Source: an uncultured delta proteobacterium (GTDB lineage: Bacteria; Desulfobacterota; Binatia; UBA9968). Taken from it: DNA of 64,000 nucleotides. The position numbers and the translations under genes are program-made. The DNA is taken from the NCBI GenBank assembly GCA_963745035.1, contig CAVUVW010000013.1:1120001-1184000 (forward strand), in the 5' to 3' direction. Shown here piece by piece: positions 1 to 43,984 of the stretch. Numbering within the stretch: position 1 is the first letter of the stretch; every line of letters begins with the position of its first letter. Under the pieces are notes generated by a model. The model was given only the letters and a program-made list of their open reading frames with translations, did no database searches and was not told where the DNA came from.

Positions 1-147
1 CAAGTTATTGGCAAGATGTTACTCTGATCAAACCGTGTTGGCGCGGAAACAATATGGAAACAGGAGCAACGAATAGATTACAACCTGGGGCTCAGCACGA
101 GCAGGGTTCAGCAGGTCCAGAACCAGAGTTGTGCAGCAGCGAGTCAG

Positions 148-285
148 AAGGGTGCTAAGCCGGCTGATCTGCCTGTGGAGCAGAGGAAGACGTTTGAATT
201 TGTCGTTAATCTCAAAACCGCCAAAGGGATCGGGCTCGACATTCCGCAGTCGGTGCTGTTCCGAGCCGACAGGGTGATCAAATGA
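148..285 (+). pseudogene. Orphan 3' tail of an ABC_sub_bind (DUF534-type) solute-binding protein gene
   Basis: Manual translation [45 protein letters not shown] matches the C-terminus of the intact paralog at 2544-3536; the upstream frame is unrelated and has no start. Confidence 0.85.
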
Positions 286-287
286 AG

Positions 288-363
288 CCAGGACTGAATT
301 GAATTCTCCATCAACGCAATCTCGCGTGGCATCACATTGAAGCGTCGTTCAGTTCAATCCTAG
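288..363 (+). repeat. ~75-bp hairpin element, copy 1
   Basis: CCA-GGACTGAATTGAA-TTCTCCATCAA...TTGAAGCGTCG-TTCAGTTCAATCC-TAG; imperfect 13-bp inverted arms. Confidence 0.9.
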
Positions 364-470
364 GTTGAAATTAGCCTTTTTCCCCTCGACGAATCCGGTT
401 TTTGTTCTGCCGTAAACAACCCTTTTTTAAGTCTCCGTGTTCGTGATAAATAAACTCACGAGGTGGGCTG

Positions 471-549
471 GTCAATCTGAAGACGGCCAAGCAGCTCGCC
501 TAACTATTCCGCCCAATGTCCTGGCCAGAGCGGATGGGTGATGAAGTGA
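471..549 (+). pseudogene. Orphan, frameshifted 3' tail of an ABC_sub_bind SBP gene
   Basis: Reads VNLKTAKQL/LTIPPNVLARAD/VMK* across two 1-nt shifts. Confidence 0.75.
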
Positions 550-586
550 ACATAGCCGACATGTCGCAACATACAAAGACTACTCA

Positions 587-1533
587 TGTGTCCTGCGATA
601 TACGCTCTGCTTATTGAAACTGGCTTTCTCGCTAATGCCAGCAGCCGAAAGCGGTATTTAAGATCGGAATGCTCTGGAGGCGTCCGGACTCGGGTTATTC
701 CGTGGAGAGCTGCGTGAGCTTGGCTACGTTGAAGGGAAGAACATAATTTCCGAGTACCGACAGAGTGATGGAAAGCTCGACCGCGTTCCTGCCCTTGTTG
801 ATGAGCTGATTCGCCAGAAAGTTGACGTGCTCGTCGCTTCCTCGACACCCGGCGCCATGCTGCCAAGAACGCTACTTCTACGATCCCGATTGTTTTTTTA
901 ACTGTGCCCGATCCTGTCGGAGCTGGGCTGGTCGATAGTCTCGCACAACCAGGCGGAAACATTACGGGAGTCGCAAACATTACCCCCGATATGGCCGGCA
1001 AACGACTGGAGTTGCTAAAAGAAACTATTCCGAAGATTTCCCGTGTTGCAGTGCTTTGGGACCCACAAATCCCAGGCTCCGCCGAATCCTGGAAAGAAAG
1101 CCGCGTGCCGGCGCAGGAACTGGGTCTACTCCTTCATTCCATGGAAATAAGCAGCGCGGACAATCTCGATGCGAAGTTCGAAGAAACGGTTCAGGCGCGT
1201 AGCTCGGCGCTCATGCTAGCGGGTGGCACATTGGCTACCGCCAATCAAAAAACAATCGCGGATCTCGCCATAAAAAATCGTTTGCCAACGATTTCTACGC
1301 GCACAGATTTCGTGGAAGCGGCGTCTTAATGTCGTATGGCTCTGACTTAAAAGAACCTTACAAGCGCGTGGCATCCATCGTTGATAAGATCCTCAAGGGG
1401 ACGAAGCCCGTCGACATCCCCGTCGAACAACCAACAAAGTTTAAGATGTATATTAACCTCAAAACAGCAAAAGCAGATCGGCCTGACGATTCCGCCGAAT
1501 GTGCTGGCGCGGGCGGATAAGGTGATCAAGTAA
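587..1533 (+). pseudogene. ABC_sub_bind SBP, multiply frameshifted; start approximate
   Basis: Pieces QQPKAVFKIG, LRELGYVEGKN, PDPVGAGLVDSLAQPGGNITG, MSYG...VDKILKGTKPVDIPVEQPTKF and IGLTIPPNVLARADKVIK* occur in order across about five frameshifts. Confidence 0.85.
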
Positions 1534-1546
1534 CCACCCGGCGACG

Positions 1547-1620
1547 CTAGGATTGAACTGAATTCTCCTACAACCAAATCCTGTGGAATTTGTCCGTTGC
1601 GTCGTTGAGTTCAACCCTAC
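1547..1620 (+). repeat. ~75-bp hairpin element, copy 2
   Basis: CTA-GGATTGAACTGAA-TTCTCCTACAA...GCGTCG-TTGAGTTCAACCC-TAC. Confidence 0.88.
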
Positions 1621-1729
1621 CGGCTTTTTTGTGATTGTCTAGCCGAACTAAGCCGCCGATTGTTAGGGAGTATGCGGCCCCGCCGGTCAGCTTTTGGCGG
1701 AAGCCGTTGAGCTGGGTGGCTGATGGATA

Positions 1730-1830
1730 TTGCAACCGATTTGGATTTTATTGTCGGAGCCACCGCTGGAGATAAGCGGACCGGCATTTGTCTCCGCTTA
1801 CGGTGGCTCAATTAAAGATACAAGTTAGGA
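1730..1830 (+). mobile_element. Degenerate attC-like site
   Basis: Imperfect palindrome GCAAC..TTGGATTTTATTG..GAGCCACCG / CGGTGGCTC-AATTAAAGATACAA-GTTAGGA; ends 8 nt before the next ATG, as in gene cassettes; left core is non-canonical. Confidence 0.4.
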
Positions 1831-1838
1831 CACAAAAT

Positions 1839-2264
1839 ATGCGAAATCTGATTACCCTCTCTCTTATCGTCTTGGTTACGGCTTGTGGGACTATGAGTGC
1901 AGACCGCAGTGGGACTGCGAAACAACAGGTGGCTGAAGCAACTGCCGCCTGGGTTGCGGCGTATAATAGCCGTGATCCGGGACGTATCACCTCGTTGTAT
2001 GACCCCGAAGCTGTGTTCTGGGGAACGTCAGCAAAAACAATTTCTGCAAGCCCAGTTGCGATTGCCGATTATTTTAAGGATGCCGGCAAGACCCCCGACG
2101 CGAGAGTTACTCTCGGCGAACAGCATATTCGCGTCTATGGCGATGTGGCCATAAACACGGGCTACTACACATTCAGGAGTCCTGCTCGTTTCACCGTTGT
2201 CTACCGAAATCGGAACGGAAAATGGTTGATCGTTGATCACCACTCATCACGAGTTCCGGGGTAG
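1839..2264 (+). CDS. NTF2-like SgcJ/EcaC/DUF4440-family lipoprotein, cassette-like gene
   Basis: Lipobox LVTAC; WVAAYNSRD...LYDPEAVFWGT...ARFTVVY...WLIVDHHSS signature; bracketed by GTTAGG and an attC-like site. Confidence 0.85.
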   Translation: MRNLITLSLIVLVTACGTMSADRSGTAKQQVAEATAAWVAAYNSRDPGRITSLYDPEAVFWGTSAKTISASPVAIADYFKDAGKTPDARVTLGEQHIRVYGDVAINTGYYTFRSPARFTVVYRNRNGKWLIVDHHSSRVPG

Positions 2265-2281
2265 TTAGTTGTTATTCTCGA

Positions 2282-2370
2282 GTCCAATTCTTCAGGTGGA
2301 GTGTACGGGCCGCAAGCGTTCTGCAACAGTCGGTGTCTGTGCTGGCCCGCCGCTCACCAAGACGTTAGTG
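2282..2370 (+). mobile_element. Integron attC-like site
   Basis: GTCCAAT (R'' with one mismatch)-5 nt-GGTGGAGTG...GGGCC/GGCCC...CGCTCACC-AAGAC-GTTAGTG (R'-like); extrahelical base in the L box; 17 nt after a stop codon. Confidence 0.7.
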
Positions 2371-2446
2371 CCAGGATTGAACTGAATTCTCCATCAAACC
2401 AATCTCCGTGATCATCAAATTGAAGCGTCGTTCAGTTCAATCTCAG
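2371..2446 (+). repeat. ~75-bp hairpin element, copy 3; abuts the attC
   Basis: CCA-GGATTGAACTGAA-TTCTCCATCAA...TTGAAGCGTCG-TTCAGTTCAATCT-CAG. Confidence 0.92.
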
Positions 2447-2543
2447 GCTAAATTTGGTCTTTTTCACTGGCCGATTCACTGTTGCCTTCGGTCGCAAATC
2501 TTAGTTTCCCTCTGATACAGCCCGCGTGATAAACATGTGGGCA

Positions 2544-3536
2544 ATGAGGAAAGCTGGTGTCTTATCTGTCTTGGTAATGCTTGCTGTTGCAGTCGTAGCC
2601 GAGGCGCAGCAGCCAACAAAAATCCCGCGGATCGGATACGTCTCAGGCACGGGCACTGCGACTAATCAAGGTCCGTACGTCGAAGCTCTGCGCCAAGGGC
2701 TGCGCGAAGTAGGTCACGTCGAGGGGAAAACCTTCGTGATCGAGTATCGCGCCGCGGAGGGACAGATAGAGCGCGTACCAAGCCTCGTCGAGGAACTAGT
2801 ACAACAAAAGGTCGATCTAATGATTGCTCCGGTTCCAAACGCCATCCGAGCCGCTAAACAGGCAACCAAGACGATTCCTATTGTTATGGTGGCCAGCATT
2901 GATCCGGTCGCAACCGGAATGATCGATAGCTTGGCACGTCCTGGTGGAAATTTGACTGGCATCTCCACCCTAAACCAAGACCTAAACGGCAAACGGCTAG
3001 AATTGCTCAAGGAGGTGGTCCCGCAGCTATCACGCGTGGGAATTCTTCTGGATAGGGGAAGTTCGAGCACGAGTTCTACGGTAGTGAATTTGAAGCAGTA
3101 TGAGGACGCGGCCAGGGTTCTCAAGATAGAAATCCAATCGCTTGAAGTCCACGGACCGAAGCCCGACCTGGAACCTATGTTTAATACAGCCGCCAAGTTG
3201 CGCATTGGGGGGCTGGTCACAATCACTAATGCCAACCTCTTTATCCAACAAAAGCGGCTCGCCGAACTCGCGATAAAACATAGGCTGCCTTCAATGTTCC
3301 AGGGAAGCACCTGGGTCGATTCAGGCGGCCTTATGTCCTATGCAACCGACGAACTTGGCGCGTTTCGCCGAGCCGCGACTTATGTGGATAAAATACTCAA
3401 GGGCACAAAGCCTGCTGATTTGCCGGTCGAGCAGACAACAAAGTTTGAATTCGTAGTCAACCTCAAAACCGCTAAACAAATCGGTCTCAACATTCCGGAG
3501 TCGGTGCTATTCCGAGCTGACAGAGTAGTCAAATGA
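2544..3536 (+). CDS. ABC transporter substrate-binding protein (ABC_sub_bind/DUF534 type), intact
   Basis: Signal peptide ending AEA-QQP; IPIVM, SLARPGGNLTG, GGLMSY and [23 protein letters not shown] motifs; alternative starts at 2526 and 2535. Confidence 0.93.
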   Translation: MRKAGVLSVLVMLAVAVVAEAQQPTKIPRIGYVSGTGTATNQGPYVEALRQGLREVGHVEGKTFVIEYRAAEGQIERVPSLVEELVQQKVDLMIAPVPNAIRAAKQATKTIPIVMVASIDPVATGMIDSLARPGGNLTGISTLNQDLNGKRLELLKEVVPQLSRVGILLDRGSSSTSSTVVNLKQYEDAARVLKIEIQSLEVHGPKPDLEPMFNTAAKLRIGGLVTITNANLFIQQKRLAELAIKHRLPSMFQGSTWVDSGGLMSYATDELGAFRRAATYVDKILKGTKPADLPVEQTTKFEFVVNLKTAKQIGLNIPESVLFRADRVVK

Positions 3537-3590
3537 TACTGTTCCGTTGCCGTTGCCAGTGGTCAGCGGTTACCAAGAGCGTCTTCGCCA

Positions 3591-3674
3591 TTCGTTAATC
3601 TTAAAACCGCCAAGCAAATCGGCCTGAAAATTCCGGCTAATGTGCTGGCGAGGGCGAATAAGGTGATCAAATAA
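3591..3674 (+). pseudogene. Orphan 3' tail of an ABC_sub_bind SBP gene
   Basis: FVNLKTAKQIGLKIPANVLARANKVIK* in frame, no start. Confidence 0.85.
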
Positions 3675-3686
3675 CGAGGCGGCGTC

Positions 3687-3724
3687 CCAGGATTGAACTG
3701 TATTCTCCATCAATTCAATTTCAG
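3687..3724 (+). repeat. Hairpin element, copy 4, internally deleted
   Basis: CCA-GGATTGAACTGTA-TTCTCCATCAA joined directly to TTCAATTTCAG. Confidence 0.75.
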
Positions 3725-3809
3725 GTCGATGACCCTGGAGTGCTACGGTCCGTGCTGCCCGGCCCTTTTCCTGCGCGGGCGGACAGAGTGATAAAATAAG
3801 GAGCGCATT

Positions 3810-4472
3810 ATGATCGGTGCCAAGGCTCTGTTAGAAGGGATTCGGCAAGATTTGCAGCCCGTCACGGAACAGCTTCTGGGGCATCCTTACGTGAAGGCTC
3901 TGGAGGAAGGGCAGATTGAGCGGGAGAAGCTCCGTCTTTTTGCCGGCGAGCAGTACAGCATCATAGCGAGTGATCTCAAAAGCGTCGCTTATTTGCTTAG
4001 CCGCTTCGGTAGCGCTCCGAGCCGTGATTTCTTTCTCGGAATCCTGCAGGGTGAAAGAGCTGCCTGGGATGGCTTGCTAACGTTCGTCAATGCCCTCGGC
4101 CTAAGCGAAGCTCAACTGAGCAAGCACGAGCCAGCGGCTGGCGCTCATGCCTACACCTGCTACATGGCGTGGCTTGCGCTCTATGCCTCTGACGCCGAGA
4201 TTGCTGCTGCCTACCTGGTCAATTTTCCAGCGTGGGGTCAGAACTGTGGCCGCCTGAGCCGGATTCTGAAAGAGCGTTTCGGTATGGGCGAGAAGGAAGT
4301 CGCTTTTTTTGATCTCTTCGCCTCTCCTCCAACTACATTTGAAGCCGACGCTCTGAAAGTTATTCAGCAGGGACTCGATCGAGGCATCGAGCCGAGCCTG
4401 ATCCAACGGGCGGCTCGGTTACTCCAGGCCTACGAGCTCATGTATTGGGATACCCTCTACGGGGCGTCTTAG
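3810..4472 (+). CDS. TenA/THI-4/PqqC-fold (heme-oxygenase-like) protein
   Basis: HPYVKALEEG, EQYSIIASD and RLLQAYELMYWD motifs; AAGGAG RBS. Confidence 0.8.
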   Translation: MIGAKALLEGIRQDLQPVTEQLLGHPYVKALEEGQIEREKLRLFAGEQYSIIASDLKSVAYLLSRFGSAPSRDFFLGILQGERAAWDGLLTFVNALGLSEAQLSKHEPAAGAHAYTCYMAWLALYASDAEIAAAYLVNFPAWGQNCGRLSRILKERFGMGEKEVAFFDLFASPPTTFEADALKVIQQGLDRGIEPSLIQRAARLLQAYELMYWDTLYGAS

Positions 4473-4474
4473 CC

Positions 4475-4506
4475 GTGCTGGCAGGGCGGATAAAGTGATC
4501 GAGTGA
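4475..4506 (+). pseudogene. Very short SBP 3' tail remnant
   Basis: GTGCTGGCAGGGCGGATAAAGTGATCGAGTGA reads VLA/RADKVIE* with one shift; starts 2 nt after the TenA stop. Confidence 0.65.
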
Positions 4507-4529
4507 GCGAAGAAAACCAAGCGGCAATG

Positions 4530-4600
4530 CTAGGATTGAACTGAATTGTCCATCAATCTTAAACCACATCAAATTGAAGCGTCGTTCAGTTCAATGCTGG
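4530..4600 (+). repeat. ~75-bp hairpin element, copy 5
   Basis: CTA-GGATTGAACTGAA-TTGTCCATCAA...TTGAAGCGTCG-TTCAGTTCAATGC-TGG. Confidence 0.9.
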
Positions 4601-4902
4601 AATATAAATTCAGATCAACCCGGACATTTTGCAGACAGCTTAGGAAAAACTAGCGCCACGAAGCTAGAATAGACGGCCTGCTTAAAAGGCAATCAGAGAG
4701 TACTAACAAGTACCACATCATACTAAAACTCCTCGCATGCTTTCCCGCACGGAAATACTACATCGTACAGAGCCGTTTTGGCGGCAGTTCACGCACAAAA
4801 GGCGCACAAAACACGGCAGCGGTTTGGCCAAAATCATGTCCTTGACAGACTTTAGCGATCTAGGCGATATTTTGCGCGGTTAAACCCGCAAGGTCATCCT
4901 CG

Positions 4903-5355
4903 ATGGATCAATCAGTCGTCAGCGCGTTATCAGCGATCTTGGGTTCACTGGTTGGCGGTTCGGCCACCATTGCAACTGCTTGGATTACACAGAAGACGCA
5001 AAGCAGACGCGAGTTAGTCGGCGCCGAGATTCGAAAGCGAGAACTACTCTATACTGAGTTTATTGACGAGTGCTCGAAGCTGGCCATTGACGCTTTGGAC
5101 CACACGCTCGATGACACCACGAAGGTTTTTCGCGTTTACGCACTTTCAAGTCGCATCAGGCTCACATCGTCCGACATGGTGGTTGCGGCCGCAGATCAGA
5201 CCGTAAAGCATATTCTCACGAGCTATTTCAGGCCTAACATGACGAGGGAAGAGATTCGAGATCTGGCCCTTTCCGGAACTGCTGAAAAAGATCCGCTTAC
5301 GCAATTCAGCGAAGCCTGTCGAAACGAGCTTAAAGCATTGCAATCTGGCTTCTGA
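4903..5355 (+). CDS. Hypothetical protein with N-terminal transmembrane helix
   Basis: 150-aa ORF; hydrophobic N-terminus followed by a helical charged domain. Confidence 0.75.
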   Translation: MDQSVVSALSAILGSLVGGSATIATAWITQKTQSRRELVGAEIRKRELLYTEFIDECSKLAIDALDHTLDDTTKVFRVYALSSRIRLTSSDMVVAAADQTVKHILTSYFRPNMTREEIRDLALSGTAEKDPLTQFSEACRNELKALQSGF

Positions 5356-5511
5356 CGAAGCAGCTCGTCCGTCCACAAGGAAGCCTGTTACGGCAATTCG
5401 TATAATTCAAATCCTTATCAGAATCCCCGCCGCCGATAAATAATTTGCCTGAAACGAGGCGATCAATCACCCGTAGGCAGTGCCACTAAAAACATGGTGC
5501 GGAGGCCGCAA

Positions 5512-5631
5512 ATGAAAACTACTTTGAAATTATTCATTTTGGTCGCCAGCATTTTTGTGATGACGACTATGCCTAACCAGTGCGGGAACCGGACCGCCCA
5601 AGTCGCAGCTGAGAGTTTCTTGGCGGAGTGA
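5512..5631 (+). pseudogene. Truncated cassette-like ORF: signal peptide fused to an attC left half
   Basis: GGAGG RBS; MKTTLKLFILVASIFVMTT runs straight into GCCTAAC (perfect R'' at 5571) and a CCGCCCAAG/CTTGGCGG stem. Confidence 0.45.
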
Positions 5632-5638
5632 GGGTGGT

Positions 5639-5708
5639 GGCTAACCCTTCCATCGAGCAGACGGGCTGCCGGTGCGCGTCTCCAGCCGCCGCTCATCAAA
5701 CGTTAGTG
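5639..5708 (+). mobile_element. Integron attC-like site (70 bp)
   Basis: GGCTAAC-CCTTC-CATCGAGC-AGAC-GGGCTG...CAGCC-GCC-GCTCAT-CAAAC-GTTAGTG: R''/L''/L'/R' layout with an extrahelical base. Confidence 0.8.
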
Positions 5709-5782
5709 TTAGAATTGAACTGAATTCTCCTACAAAATTAATCCAGAGAATCTGCCTGAGGCATCGTTTATTTCAAACGTAC
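5709..5782 (+). repeat. Hairpin element, copy 6; abuts the attC, right arm overlaps the cupin stop
   Basis: TTA-GAATTGAACTGAA-TTCTCCTACAA...GGCATCG-TTTATTTCAAACG-TAC. Confidence 0.75.
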
Positions 5783-6091
5783 GGCGAGCCAAACCGTATT
5801 CGCGCTGGTGCGCGCCACTCGATGGCGCACGCTGCGCGGGATCATTACATAATCGCCTTCGCTCATTTCAACGATTTGACCGTCGGTGAATTCTAGCGCC
5901 GCCGTGCCGCGCAGCACGATCACCCATTCGTCTTCGGCTTGATCGTACCAGAACCCGGCCGGACTGCTGTGCGAGTGCGAGACGATTCGCTCGATCCTGA
6001 CGGCGCCGCTTTCGAACAAGACGAAAAAGTCTTCCGAGCTTGCCGCGTTTCCGGCGGCGTCGAAGATATTTCCCGCATTGGGGCGCGCCAT
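5768..6091 (-). CDS. Cupin domain protein
   Basis: RIERIVSHSHSSPAGFWYDQAEDEWVIVLRG...IPRSVRHRV; real start MARPNAGNIF inside the longer spurious ORF. Confidence 0.88.
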   Translation of the reverse strand: MARPNAGNIFDAAGNAASSEDFFVLFESGAVRIERIVSHSHSSPAGFWYDQAEDEWVIVLRGTAALEFTDGQIVEMSEGDYVMIPRSVRHRVARTSANTVWLAVRLK

Positions 6092-6093
6092 CG

Positions 6094-6757
6094 TTACATC
6101 CGCGCCCGGCGAATCGCCGGCACGTCGACGATGCGGCGCTGGCCCGGCGCCGGCGGGTTTTCCACCGCGCTGACGAGCGCGGTGATCATCTGCTCGATAC
6201 TGATCAGGCCAAGCCGCTCCGCCGTTGCCCGCGTGGCGGGTATCATTTCGGCGAGTCTGTAAAGCGGCTTGATCAGCACCGGCCAGCGACGGCCCGGACC
6301 GAGCACGTACCACGGCCGCAGGATCGTCGCCGCCAAACCGGATTCGCGAATGATCGTTTCTCCGAGAGTGCGCACCCACAAGTAGGCCTGCATGATCGGC
6401 GCCGGCTGGGCGACGCTGACGTAGATCAGATGAGCGGCGCCGATTTTTTTCGCTGCCGCCACGGTGGCGCGAATCGAAACCAGATCGATCTTCTCGAATT
6501 GATCGGCCTTGCTCGGAGTGGGATGGGGCGTGCCGACCAGATGAATCACCGTGTCGTCGGACCGCAACTCCGCCTCGATCGATGTGGCTTCGAGGGCGTC
6601 GCCGATGACCGACGTCGCGCCCGCGGGAACACGGCCCACCGACGCCGCGCGCGCGAGCGCGCGCACCCGATGCCCGCGCGCAAGCAGCACGGGAATCAAT
6701 TGAGCGCCGATGTAGCCGGTGCCGCCGGTGACAAAAATATTGAGTGGTGAGTGCCAT
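6094..6757 (-). CDS. NAD(P)-binding atypical SDR/epimerase (NmrA-like); 1-nt frameshift near start
   Basis: NIFVTGGTGYIG lies upstream in frame with ORF 6094-6699; the ATG at 6757 is one base out of frame. Confidence 0.85.
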
Positions 6758-34985: not shown

Positions 34986-35717
34986 ATGGGCAAGAGTATC
35001 GTTGTCACCGGTGCCGCCGGTGGGATTTGTTCGGATATCTGCCGTGGGCTGGCGGCCGACGGATTGAACGTCGTCGTCGCGGATTACGCCAAGGCAGCGG
35101 CGGAGAAGGTCGCGGCGGAAATTTGTGACAACAAAGGCAGCGCCATCGCCGTGCAGGTCGATGTCGGCGATCCCAAGAGCGTAGCCGACATGATGCAGCA
35201 GGCGATCGCCAAATACGGCCAAGTCGACTATGCGTTTTGCGGCGCCGGCGTGATGGATCGCGTTCCCGTCGTAGATATGCCGGAAGAAATGTGGGATCGG
35301 CTGATGAGAATCAATCTAAAAGGCGTTTTCCTTTGCGCTCAGGCCGCGGCCAAGCACATGATTCCGCGAAGAGAAGGCCGGATCCTCAGCATCGCCTCGG
35401 GCCGGGGAGTCGCCGGCGCGCCGCGCTCGGCGCATTACGCGGCATCGAAAGCCGGCGTCATCGCGTTTACCAAATCGCTGGCCGCGGAGCTGGCGGCGGA
35501 CAATATCACCGTCAACTGCGTCTGTCCGGGCGCGACGGATACGCCGATGTCGCGCATCGGCTTCACACCGGATCAATTCAAGAAGCGCGAGGAAATCCCG
35601 CCGCTGATGGACGGCCTCACCCACAAATTCGAAATTGTCGGCCTGGTCCGCTACCTGCTCTCCGACGCGACCAAATTTGTCACCGGTCAAACTTTCTTCC
35701 TGCGCACGCCCAAGTAA
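34986..35717 (+). CDS. SDR family oxidoreductase
   Basis: TGAAGGI, YAASK and VCPG motifs; AGGAG RBS. Confidence 0.94.
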   Translation: MGKSIVVTGAAGGICSDICRGLAADGLNVVVADYAKAAAEKVAAEICDNKGSAIAVQVDVGDPKSVADMMQQAIAKYGQVDYAFCGAGVMDRVPVVDMPEEMWDRLMRINLKGVFLCAQAAAKHMIPRREGRILSIASGRGVAGAPRSAHYAASKAGVIAFTKSLAAELAADNITVNCVCPGATDTPMSRIGFTPDQFKKREEIPPLMDGLTHKFEIVGLVRYLLSDATKFVTGQTFFLRTPK

Positions 35718-42082: not shown

Positions 42083-43006
42083 TCACGCGCTCTTCGCCTT
42101 GCTTACCGAGCTGAGCAAGTTGAGTTCGGCAAAGAGTTCCCGCAACTCGTCGTAGGCGTCCCGGCTAAGCGGCTTGGACGGCCAGCGCGGATACATTTTC
42201 ACGTCGAACCCGCGCAACCGCATCGCCTCGCAGTAAATCGTTCGGCCGAAGGGACCGGCCAAGCGCAGAAAAATATCGTGGATCCTAATGACCGTCTTTT
42301 GCAACGACAACGCTTTGTGATTCTCGCCGGCGTCGATGGCGCGGACCAGCTCAACGCCAATCTCCGGTGTGACAGCGAGCGGCGGACTGATCGTTCCGGC
42401 GACGCCCACCGACATGGCGGAAACCAGGTTGCTCGCCAGCACATAGGGCGCAAACGAAGCCTTCACAATTTTCATGTAGGCCATCGCTTCGTCGACGCTC
42501 CCCATCGCCAGTTTGGCGCCGAAAATGCGCGGCACGGCGGTGACCAGACGCGCCATGAAATCCGGATGAATGTTGTAACCGGAGTAGCGCGGATTGTTAT
42601 ACACGAGTATCGGCATCCCAACAGCGCGATCCACCATTTTAAAATGCTCGATGATCTCGTACTCCGAACGGTCGGTATAGTAGTACGGACCGACGTGGCC
42701 GATAGCTTCGGCGCCAATGGACTTGGCGTGCTTGCCGAGATCGATAGCGGTATAGGGATCGACGGCACCGATCTGCACGACGACAGGCACGCGATGCTTC
42801 ACTTGTTGAACGACGATCTCGGCGACTTTCTTCCGCTCCTCCGGCGGAAGCGCGGGTCCCTGGCCGTACGAGCCCAAAATAAAGAACGCATGCACGCCGC
42901 AGGCGATAAACCAATCCGTCAGGTCGCGCATGAGCCTCTCATCCACCCTGCCGTCTTCCAAAAACACCGTCGGACTCGGAAGCACGATCCCTCTAATTTG
43001 CTCCAT
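42083..43006 (-). CDS. DHDPS/N-acetylneuraminate lyase family aldolase
   Basis: ILGSYGQ, PYYY, VYNNP and Schiff-base GAK motifs; GAGGAGG RBS. Confidence 0.92.
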   Translation of the reverse strand: MEQIRGIVLPSPTVFLEDGRVDERLMRDLTDWFIACGVHAFFILGSYGQGPALPPEERKKVAEIVVQQVKHRVPVVVQIGAVDPYTAIDLGKHAKSIGAEAIGHVGPYYYTDRSEYEIIEHFKMVDRAVGMPILVYNNPRYSGYNIHPDFMARLVTAVPRIFGAKLAMGSVDEAMAYMKIVKASFAPYVLASNLVSAMSVGVAGTISPPLAVTPEIGVELVRAIDAGENHKALSLQKTVIRIHDIFLRLAGPFGRTIYCEAMRLRGFDVKMYPRWPSKPLSRDAYDELRELFAELNLLSSVSKAKSA

Positions 43007-43037
43007 TATCAAATCCTCCTCGCTTCGGCGTGCGTAA

Positions 43038-43207: not shown

Positions 43208-43984
43208 TCATCCTCGCTCCGCCGCTTCCATCGCCGCGCGCAGCATGACGCCGTGCAGATCCACCGAAGTCATGGCGCAATACTCCAGGCCGTAGGTGGG
43301 CCGTTCGTCCGCCATGCCCTTCTCGAGCAACCGCTGCAGCGCCATGCGATTGAAGCTCGCATGGCCCATCACGCCTTCTTCATGCTCGGCCAAATCGGCT
43401 TCGACGTGGGTCGCGAAATACGTCGCCTTGTCGCGATCGAAGCCATAATGCGTCGTCAACGCTTTATAGCAGGCGGCCGACCAGTGACCGATCTGCTCCT
43501 CGGTCGTCACGGCCGAGTACCATTCCGCGGCGGTGCCTTCGTAGACGATGCCGCGCATGAAATCGATCTTGCCGCGGAATTCTGACAGCATCGGGGTGGT
43601 AAAAACTTCCTCCTCGGTTAATCCGAACGCCTGGGCGGTTTGCAGCATGACGAGAAAATGGCCCGGCGGCTTCGGATGAATGAACTCGTCGGCGATCTTC
43701 TCGCCGATAGGCCCCATGAGATCGCGGTTTACTTTTAGAAAAGTGATGTTCTTGTGGTAGGTGCAGGCGGTGAGGGTATTGATCTCGATCGTATAAGCGC
43801 CCCAGTTGCGAAAGAATGTTTGCAGCGTCTTGAGCGGCAGCTTGCCGGCCATGAGCTGCTGCATGAACGGCTTCTGGTTGACCTTTAATTCCCAGCGCTC
43901 GCGCACCATGGAGTAGAGTTGGTCGACGATCGCCTTCGCCTCGTTCGGTGAGTATTTTTCCCCCAGTTGAACCTGTAGCGCCAT
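43208..43984 (-). CDS. Heme-oxygenase-like diiron protein (CADD-like)
   Basis: PFMQQLMAG, DE..PGH, TEEQ and YGF..YFATHVEAD..H motifs. Confidence 0.82.
   Translation of the reverse strand: MALQVQLGEKYSPNEAKAIVDQLYSMVRERWELKVNQKPFMQQLMAGKLPLKTLQTFFRNWGAYTIEINTLTACTYHKNITFLKVNRDLMGPIGEKIADEFIHPKPPGHFLVMLQTAQAFGLTEEEVFTTPMLSEFRGKIDFMRGIVYEGTAAEWYSAVTTEEQIGHWSAACYKALTTHYGFDRDKATYFATHVEADLAEHEEGVMGHASFNRMALQRLLEKGMADERPTYGLEYCAMTSVDLHGVMLRAAMEAAERG

Follow-up and report, generated by a model that had tools for sequence, protein, structure and literature searches.

We analyzed a 64,000-nucleotide (nt) stretch of DNA, hereafter the window (G000:C13:1120001-1184000), from a soil member of the Binatia whose genome, G000, comprises 7.4 Mb in 28 contigs. 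At its left edge lies an island of ~7 kb, a low-GC array of co-oriented gene modules (window positions ~-1165 to 5783), in which copies of a hairpin sequence, here called H, stand between the modules. The island has no integrase of its own and is thus CALIN-like, a CALIN being a cluster of attC sites without an integron integrase. On balance, we consider it probable that this is a CALIN-like cassette island, and that H is an attC-like site for a tyrosine recombinase of the integrase family. H itself is what is new at the locus. A narrow look through the literature on attC sites and integrons in Binatia found no description of it, which gives thin support for its novelty.

A chromosomal site that is empty in congeners

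The GC content is 0.48 to 0.57 over window positions 1 to 5800 and 0.60 to 0.67 beyond; leftward of the window, low GC persists to ~C13:1118800 (window -1200). An earlier note made from the window's letters alone had the array running off the left edge, which it does, by ~1.17 kb only. The island begins at C13:~1118835, ~1165 nt beyond the window's left edge, where a lone right half of H precedes a 201-amino acid (aa) open reading frame (ORF) on the - strand that belongs to no Pfam family. An MFS gene and a cupin gene flank the island. In six of six congeners (G044, G014, G019, G045, G004, and G003) these two genes are adjacent, 0 to 125 nt apart, and the gap holds a GTTCAA-rich palindrome and/or a small terminator-like hairpin and nothing else.

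The right junction in G000 reads ...CTGAGGCATCG|TTTATTTCAAACG, the island ending in ...GCATCG|TTTATTTC, and the bases past it fall within CGTTTATTTCAAACG, a perfect palindrome of the chromosome. At the left end the sequence is ...AAACATTCG|TT, that is, ...CATTCG|TT. The TCG|TT found at both island ends is also the sequence at the 3' border of a hexamer within H (GCGTCG|TTCAG). For a second array (C2:62.5-65 kb), one flank only is conserved in relatives, and the empty-site comparison defined no junction.

The earlier note saw no recombinase in the window, and a whole-genome search with an integron-integrase model and Y1_Tnp agrees, giving no match there or in the 12 kb to the left; DDE transposases were not searched for. 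A complete integron would require an integrase, and no TIGR02249 match lies in the window or the 12 kb to its left. With two apparent attC sites on one strand, identified by eye and by folding, and no intI nearby, the island appears to have the makeup by which CALINs are defined (at least two attC sites).

Structure of H

As a single strand, the ~76-nt H is predicted to fold into an outer stem of 12 to 14 base pairs (bp) (AGGATTGAACTGAA/TTCAGTTCAATCCT), an internal loop of ~6 to 7 nt per side, an inner stem of 4 bp and a spacer of ~22 nt. Spacer length varies, giving variants of 76 nt and ~130 nt. In an alignment of 17 copies, 21 of 97 columns are invariant, including most of both hexamers, TTCTCC and GCGTCG. 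In PMC4889954, an attC is laid out as R box, unpaired spacer, L box, and variable end. The geometry of H appears to resemble this, with R' = G|TTCAGT. Read from its sequence, H would parse equally as two inverted 11-6-11 core sites around a variable spacer: On inspection both halves fit 11-6-11 with related arms, and modules sit from a right half to a left half. An Rfam scan of window positions 1 to 6500 (E ≤ 1) placed H and the attI relic described below in no family; its lone match, to a mammalian long noncoding RNA (E = 0.6), is a chance one.

Probable exchange points at the hexamer borders

Relatives carry a ~2.5-kb element that, in four of the five copies examined, sits within H, directly after GCGTCGTT or GGAGAATT, with TT on both sides. 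It follows GCGTCGTT in G043:C54 and L052 and, on the other strand, GGAGAATT twice in G018:C23; the copy in G018:C5 lies outside H. The element encodes a 299-aa IntI-like tyrosine recombinase (29% identity to IntI) and a 396-aa IS91-type transposase, and has inverted repeats (TTGGACTAAACCGC) and an 80-nt terminal hairpin. The loci are:

L129, G018:C23:251600-254200 and 259500-262000: H-inserting element
L125, G043:C54:45000-47600: H-inserting element
L052: H-inserting element

Other junctions fall at the same places. Among the H copies and variants on contig C11, foreign sequence begins from ...CG|TT on. The sequence directly past GTTCAAT sorts with the class of the downstream module, and the TenA modules of C13 and C11, which are 98% identical, diverge from just past TTCTCC. 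A crossover at the G|TT of R' in H agrees both with the right island junction, compared with the empty sites of relatives, and with the element insertions. Because island ends, element insertions, C11 runs, GTTCAAT sorting, and TenA divergence coincide in this way, both hexamer borders of H look like exchange points.

Anatomy of the island

Cargo families were assigned by Pfam, and H copies were located with a repeat finder, by reading the sequence and with an nhmmer profile. SBP stands for substrate-binding protein (Pfam family ABC_sub_bind). The features are as follows:

1 to 147, no strand assigned: right part of the first island module
148 to 285, + strand: SBP 3' fragment (ABC_sub_bind), 138 nt, stop codon TGA at 283 to 285
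287 to 364, + strand: hairpin H1; TTCTCC 304 to 309, GCGTCG 342 to 347, proposed crossover 347/348
696 to 1533, + strand: SBP pseudogene, frameshifted, 3' end intact; Pfam ABC_sub_bind fragment at 904 to 1329
1545 to 1620, + strand: hairpin H2; GCGTCG 1599 to 1604
1621 to 1824, + strand: attI relic ("leader c"), a degenerate copy; conservation stops at G|TTAGG (1824|1825)
1825 to 2370, + strand: putative integron cassette; DUF4440/SnoaL lipoprotein ORF 1839 to 2264 and imperfect attC ~2295 to 2370, G|TT at 2364|2365
2371 to 2446, + strand: hairpin H3; GCGTCG 2425 to 2430
2526 to 3536, + strand: intact SBP gene (ABC_sub_bind), 336 aa; 5' leader as found after H in other SBP modules
3590 to 3674, + strand: SBP 3' tail fragment, 85 nt
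3686 to 3766, + strand: left half of a long H variant (arm, TTCTCC, second arm; 3686 to 3728) and left part of a repeat called Y; right half missing
3773 to 4506, + strand: TenA module; SBP tail remnant of 27 nt (3773 to 3799), TENA_THI-4 ORF (3810 to 4472), second remnant (4476 to 4506)
4528 to 4603, + strand: hairpin H4; GCGTCG 4579 to 4584; junction of TenA and next module within 4573 to 4598
4604 to 5509, + strand: 150-aa ORF module; ORF 4903 to 5355 without Pfam family, promoter-like site 4842 to 4871
5512 to 5708, + strand: small putative cassette; 39-aa signal peptide-like ORF (5512 to 5631) and attC 5639 to 5708, G|TT at 5702|5703
5709 to 5783, + strand: last hairpin, H5; GCATCG 5761 to 5766, island-chromosome junction 5766|5767, chromosomal terminator-like palindrome 5765 to 5779

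From position 148 on, all features listed, every H copy included, are on the + strand. The picture drawn from the letters alone, a low-GC, co-oriented block of alternating cargo, is thus borne out by the GC values, the Pfam assignments, and the strands. Between an SBP stop or tail and the following H there are 1, 11, 11, and 21 nt (285 to 287, 1533 to 1545, 3674 to 3686 for the half H, and 4506 to 4528). Between an attC and the following H there are 0 nt, twice (attC end ...ACGTTAGTG, 2370 to 2371; attC end, 5708 to 5709). The observed 0 to 21 nt agrees with the 0 to 25 nt first described for the step from SBP tail or attC to hairpin.

Modules are shared between arrays and species

Window 3646 to 4598 (TenA) is 96.6% identical to C11:147168-148115, and window 4573 to 5509 (the 150-aa module) is 98% identical to C6:4013-4951. 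TenA also recurs in relatives at 94% and 92% identity (G045), 88% and 86% (G018), and 85% (G012); in these genomes, flanking core genes are 71 to 76% identical. Gene capture and movement, which the earlier note had proposed, is supported by this sharing of modules between arrays and species. In contigs from soil and rhizosphere metagenomes (four of four runs, from four studies), the 3708-to-4573 joint is a full H with another spacer, before the 150-aa module. The same contigs gave no evidence for the circular junctions that had been suggested as a check; they break at H and at the SBP tail, and the parts that they leave uncovered are uninformative.

Tail-like pieces in the window measure 138, 85, and ~27 to 33 nt. 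The TenA gene of G018:C5 has a full SBP 3' end on one side and, on the other, a second SBP 3' fragment (170 nt) with H after it. From this layout, the 27-nt "tails" around TenA in the window are shortened SBP remnants, and the SBP tails generally are decay remnants of SBP modules or of neighboring SBP genes, not part of the site. The proposal that tail plus hairpin forms one recombination unit therefore survives in half: The hairpin marks module boundaries and acts like a recombination site, whereas the SBP tail does not belong to it.

Nor does H drive the expansion of the SBP family, as had also been suggested. A tblastn search found 88 SBP 3' ends in G000, of which 10 are followed by H; with the other 78 lacking it, H does not explain the expansion. 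That expansion resides in tandem ABC_sub_bind arrays of ~1-kb spacing at C2:1-26500 (24 copies), C14:386000-414000 (26), and C17:177000-204000 (24), none of which contains H.

Two further observations concern the SBP tails. Over window 1450 to 1656, summed contig depth in four metagenome runs was 20 to 200 times higher at the SBP tail than in neighboring bins. The last 60 to 80 nt of this SBP family are common to very many soil genes and organisms.

Integron parts in the island and elsewhere in the genome

One integrase in G000 exceeds the integron-model cutoff, an intI at C6:42038-43168 on the - strand (445 bits against a cutoff of 265; TIGR02249 match 42134 to 43036). On the same strand, 3' of the intI stop, lies the junction ...TTCACTTAATAG|TTAGAGC. 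This attI junction, CACTTAATAG|TTAG, falls 146 nt past the stop (~41892), and at least four ORFs follow on the same strand, each ending in a canonical attC. C6:35500-44000 (L001) holds a complete integron, all on the - strand: a lexA-like gene (43291 to 43974), a GTTCAA palindrome, intI, attI, cassettes, and a second attI relic at 35568.

Window 1621 to 1824, the 204 nt after H2, is one of 13 nhmmer copies of an attI relic family in G000. Conservation in the family stops at ...CACTTAATAG|TTAG (...AATAG|TTAG), after which unrelated ORFs follow. Its members align with the C6 locus, from the final ~35 nt of intI through the spacer to the junction; the copy on C11 has TTGACA-17-GATATT. A relic 14-mer occurs 13 times in G000 at no more than one mismatch, against ~2.4 expected, and stands ~150 to 200 nt downstream of intI in G000 itself and in G012:C48, G024:C290, and G015:C4, the last three being 3 of 10 integrase-locus records of relatives, some of them overlapping. 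Given the family conservation, the C6 alignment, and the 14-mer, window 1621 to 2370 consists of an attI relic and a single canonical cassette, made up of the DUF4440 ORF and its attC. Window 1621 to 1824 can thus be classed as an attI site, albeit a degenerate copy. All six relic copies that start at an H share one order: H, relic, ORF(s), canonical attC, H.

By eye and in folding, two attC sites in the window look canonical (~2295 to 2370 and 5639 to 5708), each an imperfect palindrome in an AAC...GTT frame. An attC on C12 matches the second at 79% identity and is followed there by the next cassette, not by H. Our own attC finder, which combined an AAC...GTT frame with folding energy, proved too noisy and found neither window site; it served only to pick out a few clean attC sites near the intI of G014.

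At C22:2504-2600 and C14:1058059-1058150, attI relics are preceded by a ~80-nt duplicated 3' tail of another binding-protein gene, at a guess of the TTT/Bug-like family. "Tails" beside cassette parts are thus not peculiar to ABC_sub_bind.

Distribution of H

An nhmmer search of G000 with the H profile gave 60 matches at E ≤ 1, comprising 46 nonoverlapping copies at E < 0.01. Of these 46, 43 lie in 10 clusters (on C1, C2, C6, and C11, the last with 12 copies, and two each on C13, C14, and C26), and within each cluster all copies share a single strand. This co-oriented clustering is far beyond chance. By eye, the 35 copies that retain a left arm are preceded by an SBP 3' end (14 copies, in 3 of which the remnant is only 27 to 33 nt), by a canonical attC end ...GTTA (13), or by something else (8). 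The 13 copies standing directly after the ...G|TTA end confirm that integron cassettes adjoin the hairpin.

Relatives were searched with a covariance model built from 17 full copies. Of the 24 further genomes of the genus, 17 carry H; so do 2 of 5 genomes from a sister family, but none of 11 from a third family. Positive genomes carry 1 to 53 copies, again in co-oriented arrays.

Exact H matches also occur on short contigs binned as Pyrinomonadaceae, Verrucomicrobiia, and Pseudolabrys (L061, L063, L065, L069, and L071), and L071 has an attI relic besides H. These are either Binatia contigs that were mis-binned or the result of transfer between phyla.

How the island may have formed

Under the reading that we favor, both the assembly of the island and its insertion would have occurred in trans, the target being a short intergenic palindrome that separates the MFS gene from the cupin gene. 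It would hold three types of recombination sequence: two canonical attC sites, an attI relic, and H between all modules. The relic would carry the last intI bases and a promoter-like motif of the genome's own integron, with one canonical cassette inserted at G|TTAGG. H would serve as an attC-like site with a 14-bp outer stem, a hexamer internal loop, a short inner stem, and a variable spacer, and strands would be exchanged immediately past the hexamer (GCGTCG|TTCAGTTCAAT). The modules that have H at their borders, namely, SBP, TenA, the 150-aa ORF, and the attI relic with its cassette, could then be excised, reinserted, or exchanged at H, so that the same modules would appear in other arrays and other species. 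Decay of SBP modules would leave the SBP tails. A recombinase would act on H in folded or duplex form, with the C6 IntI as one candidate.

Candidate recombinases

Of the 31 genomes of the genus, 15 have IntI matches at E ≤ 1e-30, with 9 above the cutoff. The recombinase linked to the IS91-type transposase has 10 matches in G018, a genome with 53 H copies, and no match in G000 at E ≤ 1e-40. The C11 array, the largest of H, contains a split tyrosine recombinase (C11:129973-130875; L014:3973-4875) consisting of an N-terminal SAM-like ORF of 94 aa and a catalytic ORF of 198 aa; a single nucleotide separates its end from a right half of H. Close homologues are missing from 30 congeners, where relatives reach only ~40% identity, one per genome. 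None of the three is clearly tied to the arrays: The split C11 enzyme has no close kin, IntI does not track H, and the IS91-linked enzyme is absent from G000 at E ≤ 1e-40.

Weighing the alternatives

Several observations count against an attC-like H acted on by an integrase-family enzyme. The unpaired hexamers are invariant and CAAT...ATC in the "loop" is conserved, neither of which an attC fold needs; in PMC4889954, the unpaired central spacer of attC sites is by contrast described as poorly conserved. H shows weak covariation (pairing in 88% of cells, two-sided changes in 2 of 18 pairs, and a score equaled or exceeded by 23 of 500 shuffles), and the predicted fold has no extrahelical bases. 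Where the attC R-box consensus is RYYYAAC/GTTRRRY, the R-box-like pairs of H, ATTGAAC/GTTCAAT and (A)CTGAAT/GTTCAGT, are paired and each is one position off. H arrays open with a bare right half and close with a bare left half, and the left end of the island has 16 extra H bases (TTGATTTGAAGCGTCG) before TTCAGTTCAATC, which a single G|TT crossover leaves unexplained. H counts, moreover, do not track IntI: G018 (80% complete) carries 53 copies of H but lacks IntI matches at E ≤ 1e-30, H likewise occurs without IntI in G003 and G004, and G005 and G006 have IntI with one H each. There is no H in the C6 array by intI, within 20 to 40 kb of the G014 intI, or on the 10.5-kb contig with the G012 intI.

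Much of this would suit a different arrangement, in which H is a pair of inverted duplex 11-6-11 core sites for an Xer-like or other tyrosine recombinase, modules are swapped by two crossovers, and the integron parts are mere cargo. We regard that arrangement as possible but distinctly the less probable. One site would comprise an arm ATTGAACTGAA, TTCTCC, and an arm ATCAAnnCAAT; after a ~10-nt spacer, the other would comprise an arm ATCnnAyTGAA, GCGTCG, and an arm TTCAGTTCAAT. Each module would then lie between two inverse sites with different central hexamers, as in pdif modules or in heterospecific cassette exchange in the laboratory. The noncomplementary invariant hexamers and the conserved CAAT...ATC look like centers and outer arm ends, and the variable part is exactly the intersite spacer, also in the long variants with repeat Y. 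Of 12 matches that comprise a right half only, 8 start no more than ~5 positions from where the predicted inner arm begins (model positions 42 to 53). The half copies at array ends, the divergence of the TenA modules right past TTCTCC, the independence of H from IntI, and an outer stem without compensatory change all point the same way, and the outer arm of H agrees at 8 of 11 positions with what we take to be the conserved XerD arm of a dif site. When the chromosome was scanned crudely for a dif-like counterpart of H, however, the 18 candidates were weak and none was convincing. Nor is H consistently accompanied by any one recombinase gene; the split C11 enzyme has no close relative in 30 congeners. 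By eye, the inner stem of a few copies pairs through different sequences (TCAA/TTGA, CAAC/GTTG, and CTAC/GTAG), which favors a fold. The element that inserts into H also has an IntI-like recombinase and an end hairpin of its own, not an Xer-like enzyme.

The core-site parse can be taken further. H might consist of back-to-back, heterospecific tyrosine-recombinase core sites centered on TTCTCC and GCGTCG, forming a new type of chromosomal gene-shuffling site through which whole modules, "attI plus cassette" mini-platforms included, would pass among many arrays and from species to species, in effect a second-order cassette system; we raise this tentatively. That H would, within such a system, have captured integron pieces and also be the landing site for the IS91-like element with its IntI-like recombinase is a proposal that we likewise view with some doubt.

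A passive origin seems improbable to us. H would then be a small nonautonomous palindromic repeat, derived from a miniature inverted-repeat transposable element (MITE), a REPIN (a hairpin of repetitive extragenic palindromic, or REP, sequences), or an IS200/IS605 insertion sequence, that inserts by attC or gene ends, with modules shuffled by homologous recombination between H copies and SBP tails. That H has 14-bp terminal inverted repeats and many copies, among them halves and internally deleted ones, would fit, as would the similarity of neighboring spacers within one array (C11:148040 and 149350), as from gene conversion. Elements that target attC are known, namely, IS1111-attC elements and group IIC-attC introns, and the placement of 13 of 35 copies exactly after ...GTTA (by eye) is similar. 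The genome also has five Y1_Tnp matches and 154 GTTCAA clusters with the arm motif. Yet no consistent target-site duplication accompanies the inverted repeats, as a MITE should leave, and the copies, far from being scattered, occur only in low-GC arrays, where they always share the orientation of the cargo. A scan of 3 kb around each of the five Y1_Tnp genes met one GTTCAA cluster (~2.8 kb from one gene) and none by the other four, and no nhmmer match to H lies near any of the five, unlike the pairing of a REPIN with its REP-associated tyrosine transposase. Cargo has a right half before it and a left half after it, opposite to a transposon with such ends, and junctions concentrate at hexamer|TT.

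Least credible of all is the view that no mobile system exists and that the block is a decayed tandem SBP duplication with a terminator hairpin per gene and a few foreign genes inserted. Large tandem SBP arrays of 24 to 26 copies do exist on C2, C14, and C17, and the block contains SBP fragments of every length. The tandem arrays, however, lack H, and the whole block is missing at the site in all six congeners and has a GC content 10 points under that of its flanks. H is not terminator-like, with none of the five terminator-like sites in window 1 to 6000 at an H. Non-SBP modules recur elsewhere at 85 to 98% identity, and canonical attC sites and an attI relic are present.

Relation to known systems

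The layout had been described as matching no named system. It corresponds instead to an integrase-less cassette cluster, the CALIN (Cury et al. 2016, PMC4889954); the genome has its true integron on another contig, and the island itself contains an attI relic. CALINs are there described as attC clusters without an integron integrase, and insertion at a secondary chromosomal site is proposed as their origin, which fits the G|TT junctions of the island. Shared traits are co-oriented attC cassettes, no intI nearby, and an IntI elsewhere in the genome (PMC4889954). The island differs in that only two module boundaries in the window are canonical attC sites, the rest being H, in that an attI relic is present, and in that many modules are whole genes with their own leader and promoter-like site.

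H invites comparison with several other systems. Sedentary chromosomal integrons have species-specific, homogeneous attC repeats, such as the Vibrio repeats. Like these, H is a homogeneous, lineage-restricted palindrome with a variable spacer between co-oriented cassettes; unlike them, it is not found by intI, has invariant unpaired hexamers and a 14-bp outer stem, often directly follows another attC, and forms many small arrays, not one large one. The pdif modules of Acinetobacter plasmids are gene modules between inversely oriented XerC/XerD sites. They share with H arrays the discrete modules, the inverted sites of 28-bp type (11-6-11), and the same module in different contexts. H arrays, however, are chromosomal, belong to another phylum, and would have back-to-back sites with different hexamers between every two modules, and the scan for a dif-like site of the host gave no convincing counterpart of H.

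IS91-family elements with an extra tyrosine recombinase gene are known, as are ISCR (insertion sequence common region) elements beside class 1 integrons. The element in relatives resembles the IS91 family in its IS91-type transposase plus IntI-like recombinase; it sits in the arrays and targets H and, on present data, invades H and did not build the arrays. In "inverted integrase" integrons, intI points in the same direction as the cassettes, an arrangement that has reportedly been treated in a Treponema study. The C6 integron is like this group, with intI, attI, and cassettes on one strand and a lexA-like gene just upstream. That likeness belongs to the C6 contig, whereas the island in the window has no integrase.

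Integron biology recognizes two types of site, attI and attC, and the locus bears on the question of how cassettes are made and how integrase-less arrays arise. In an uncultured soil phylum (Binatia), it offers a datable insertion, canonical cassettes, and a third, homogeneous palindromic site that bounds whole genes with their leaders, in a genome with 13 dispersed attI copies, each before a different cassette. If an integrase-family enzyme processes H, then the range of attC-like substrates would be wider and attI sites would travel as cargo. If H is instead an Xer-like double site, then the "dif module" idea would extend from Acinetobacter plasmids to the chromosomes of a distant phylum. 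On either reading, the precise hexamer|TT junctions can be used in recombination assays and in mining of long-read data from soil.

Other repeats

A structured repeat, Y (GGAGYGCYACGGTCCGTGCTGCCCGGCCCTCTCC...), is present at window 3729 to 3766, C6:5626-5700, and C13:1955800-1959600. It occurs in the spacers of long H variants and within long attC-like sites.

The 154 GTTCAA clusters of G000 each comprise at least four GTTCAA/TTGAAC hexamers at 9-bp spacing (for example, C2:49472, C5:167130, and C6:36114). They are often long palindromes between convergent genes or upstream of intI, are REP-like, and share TTGAAC with the arms of H. Such palindromes also stand at the intergenic site in relatives that is homologous to window -1235 to -1165.

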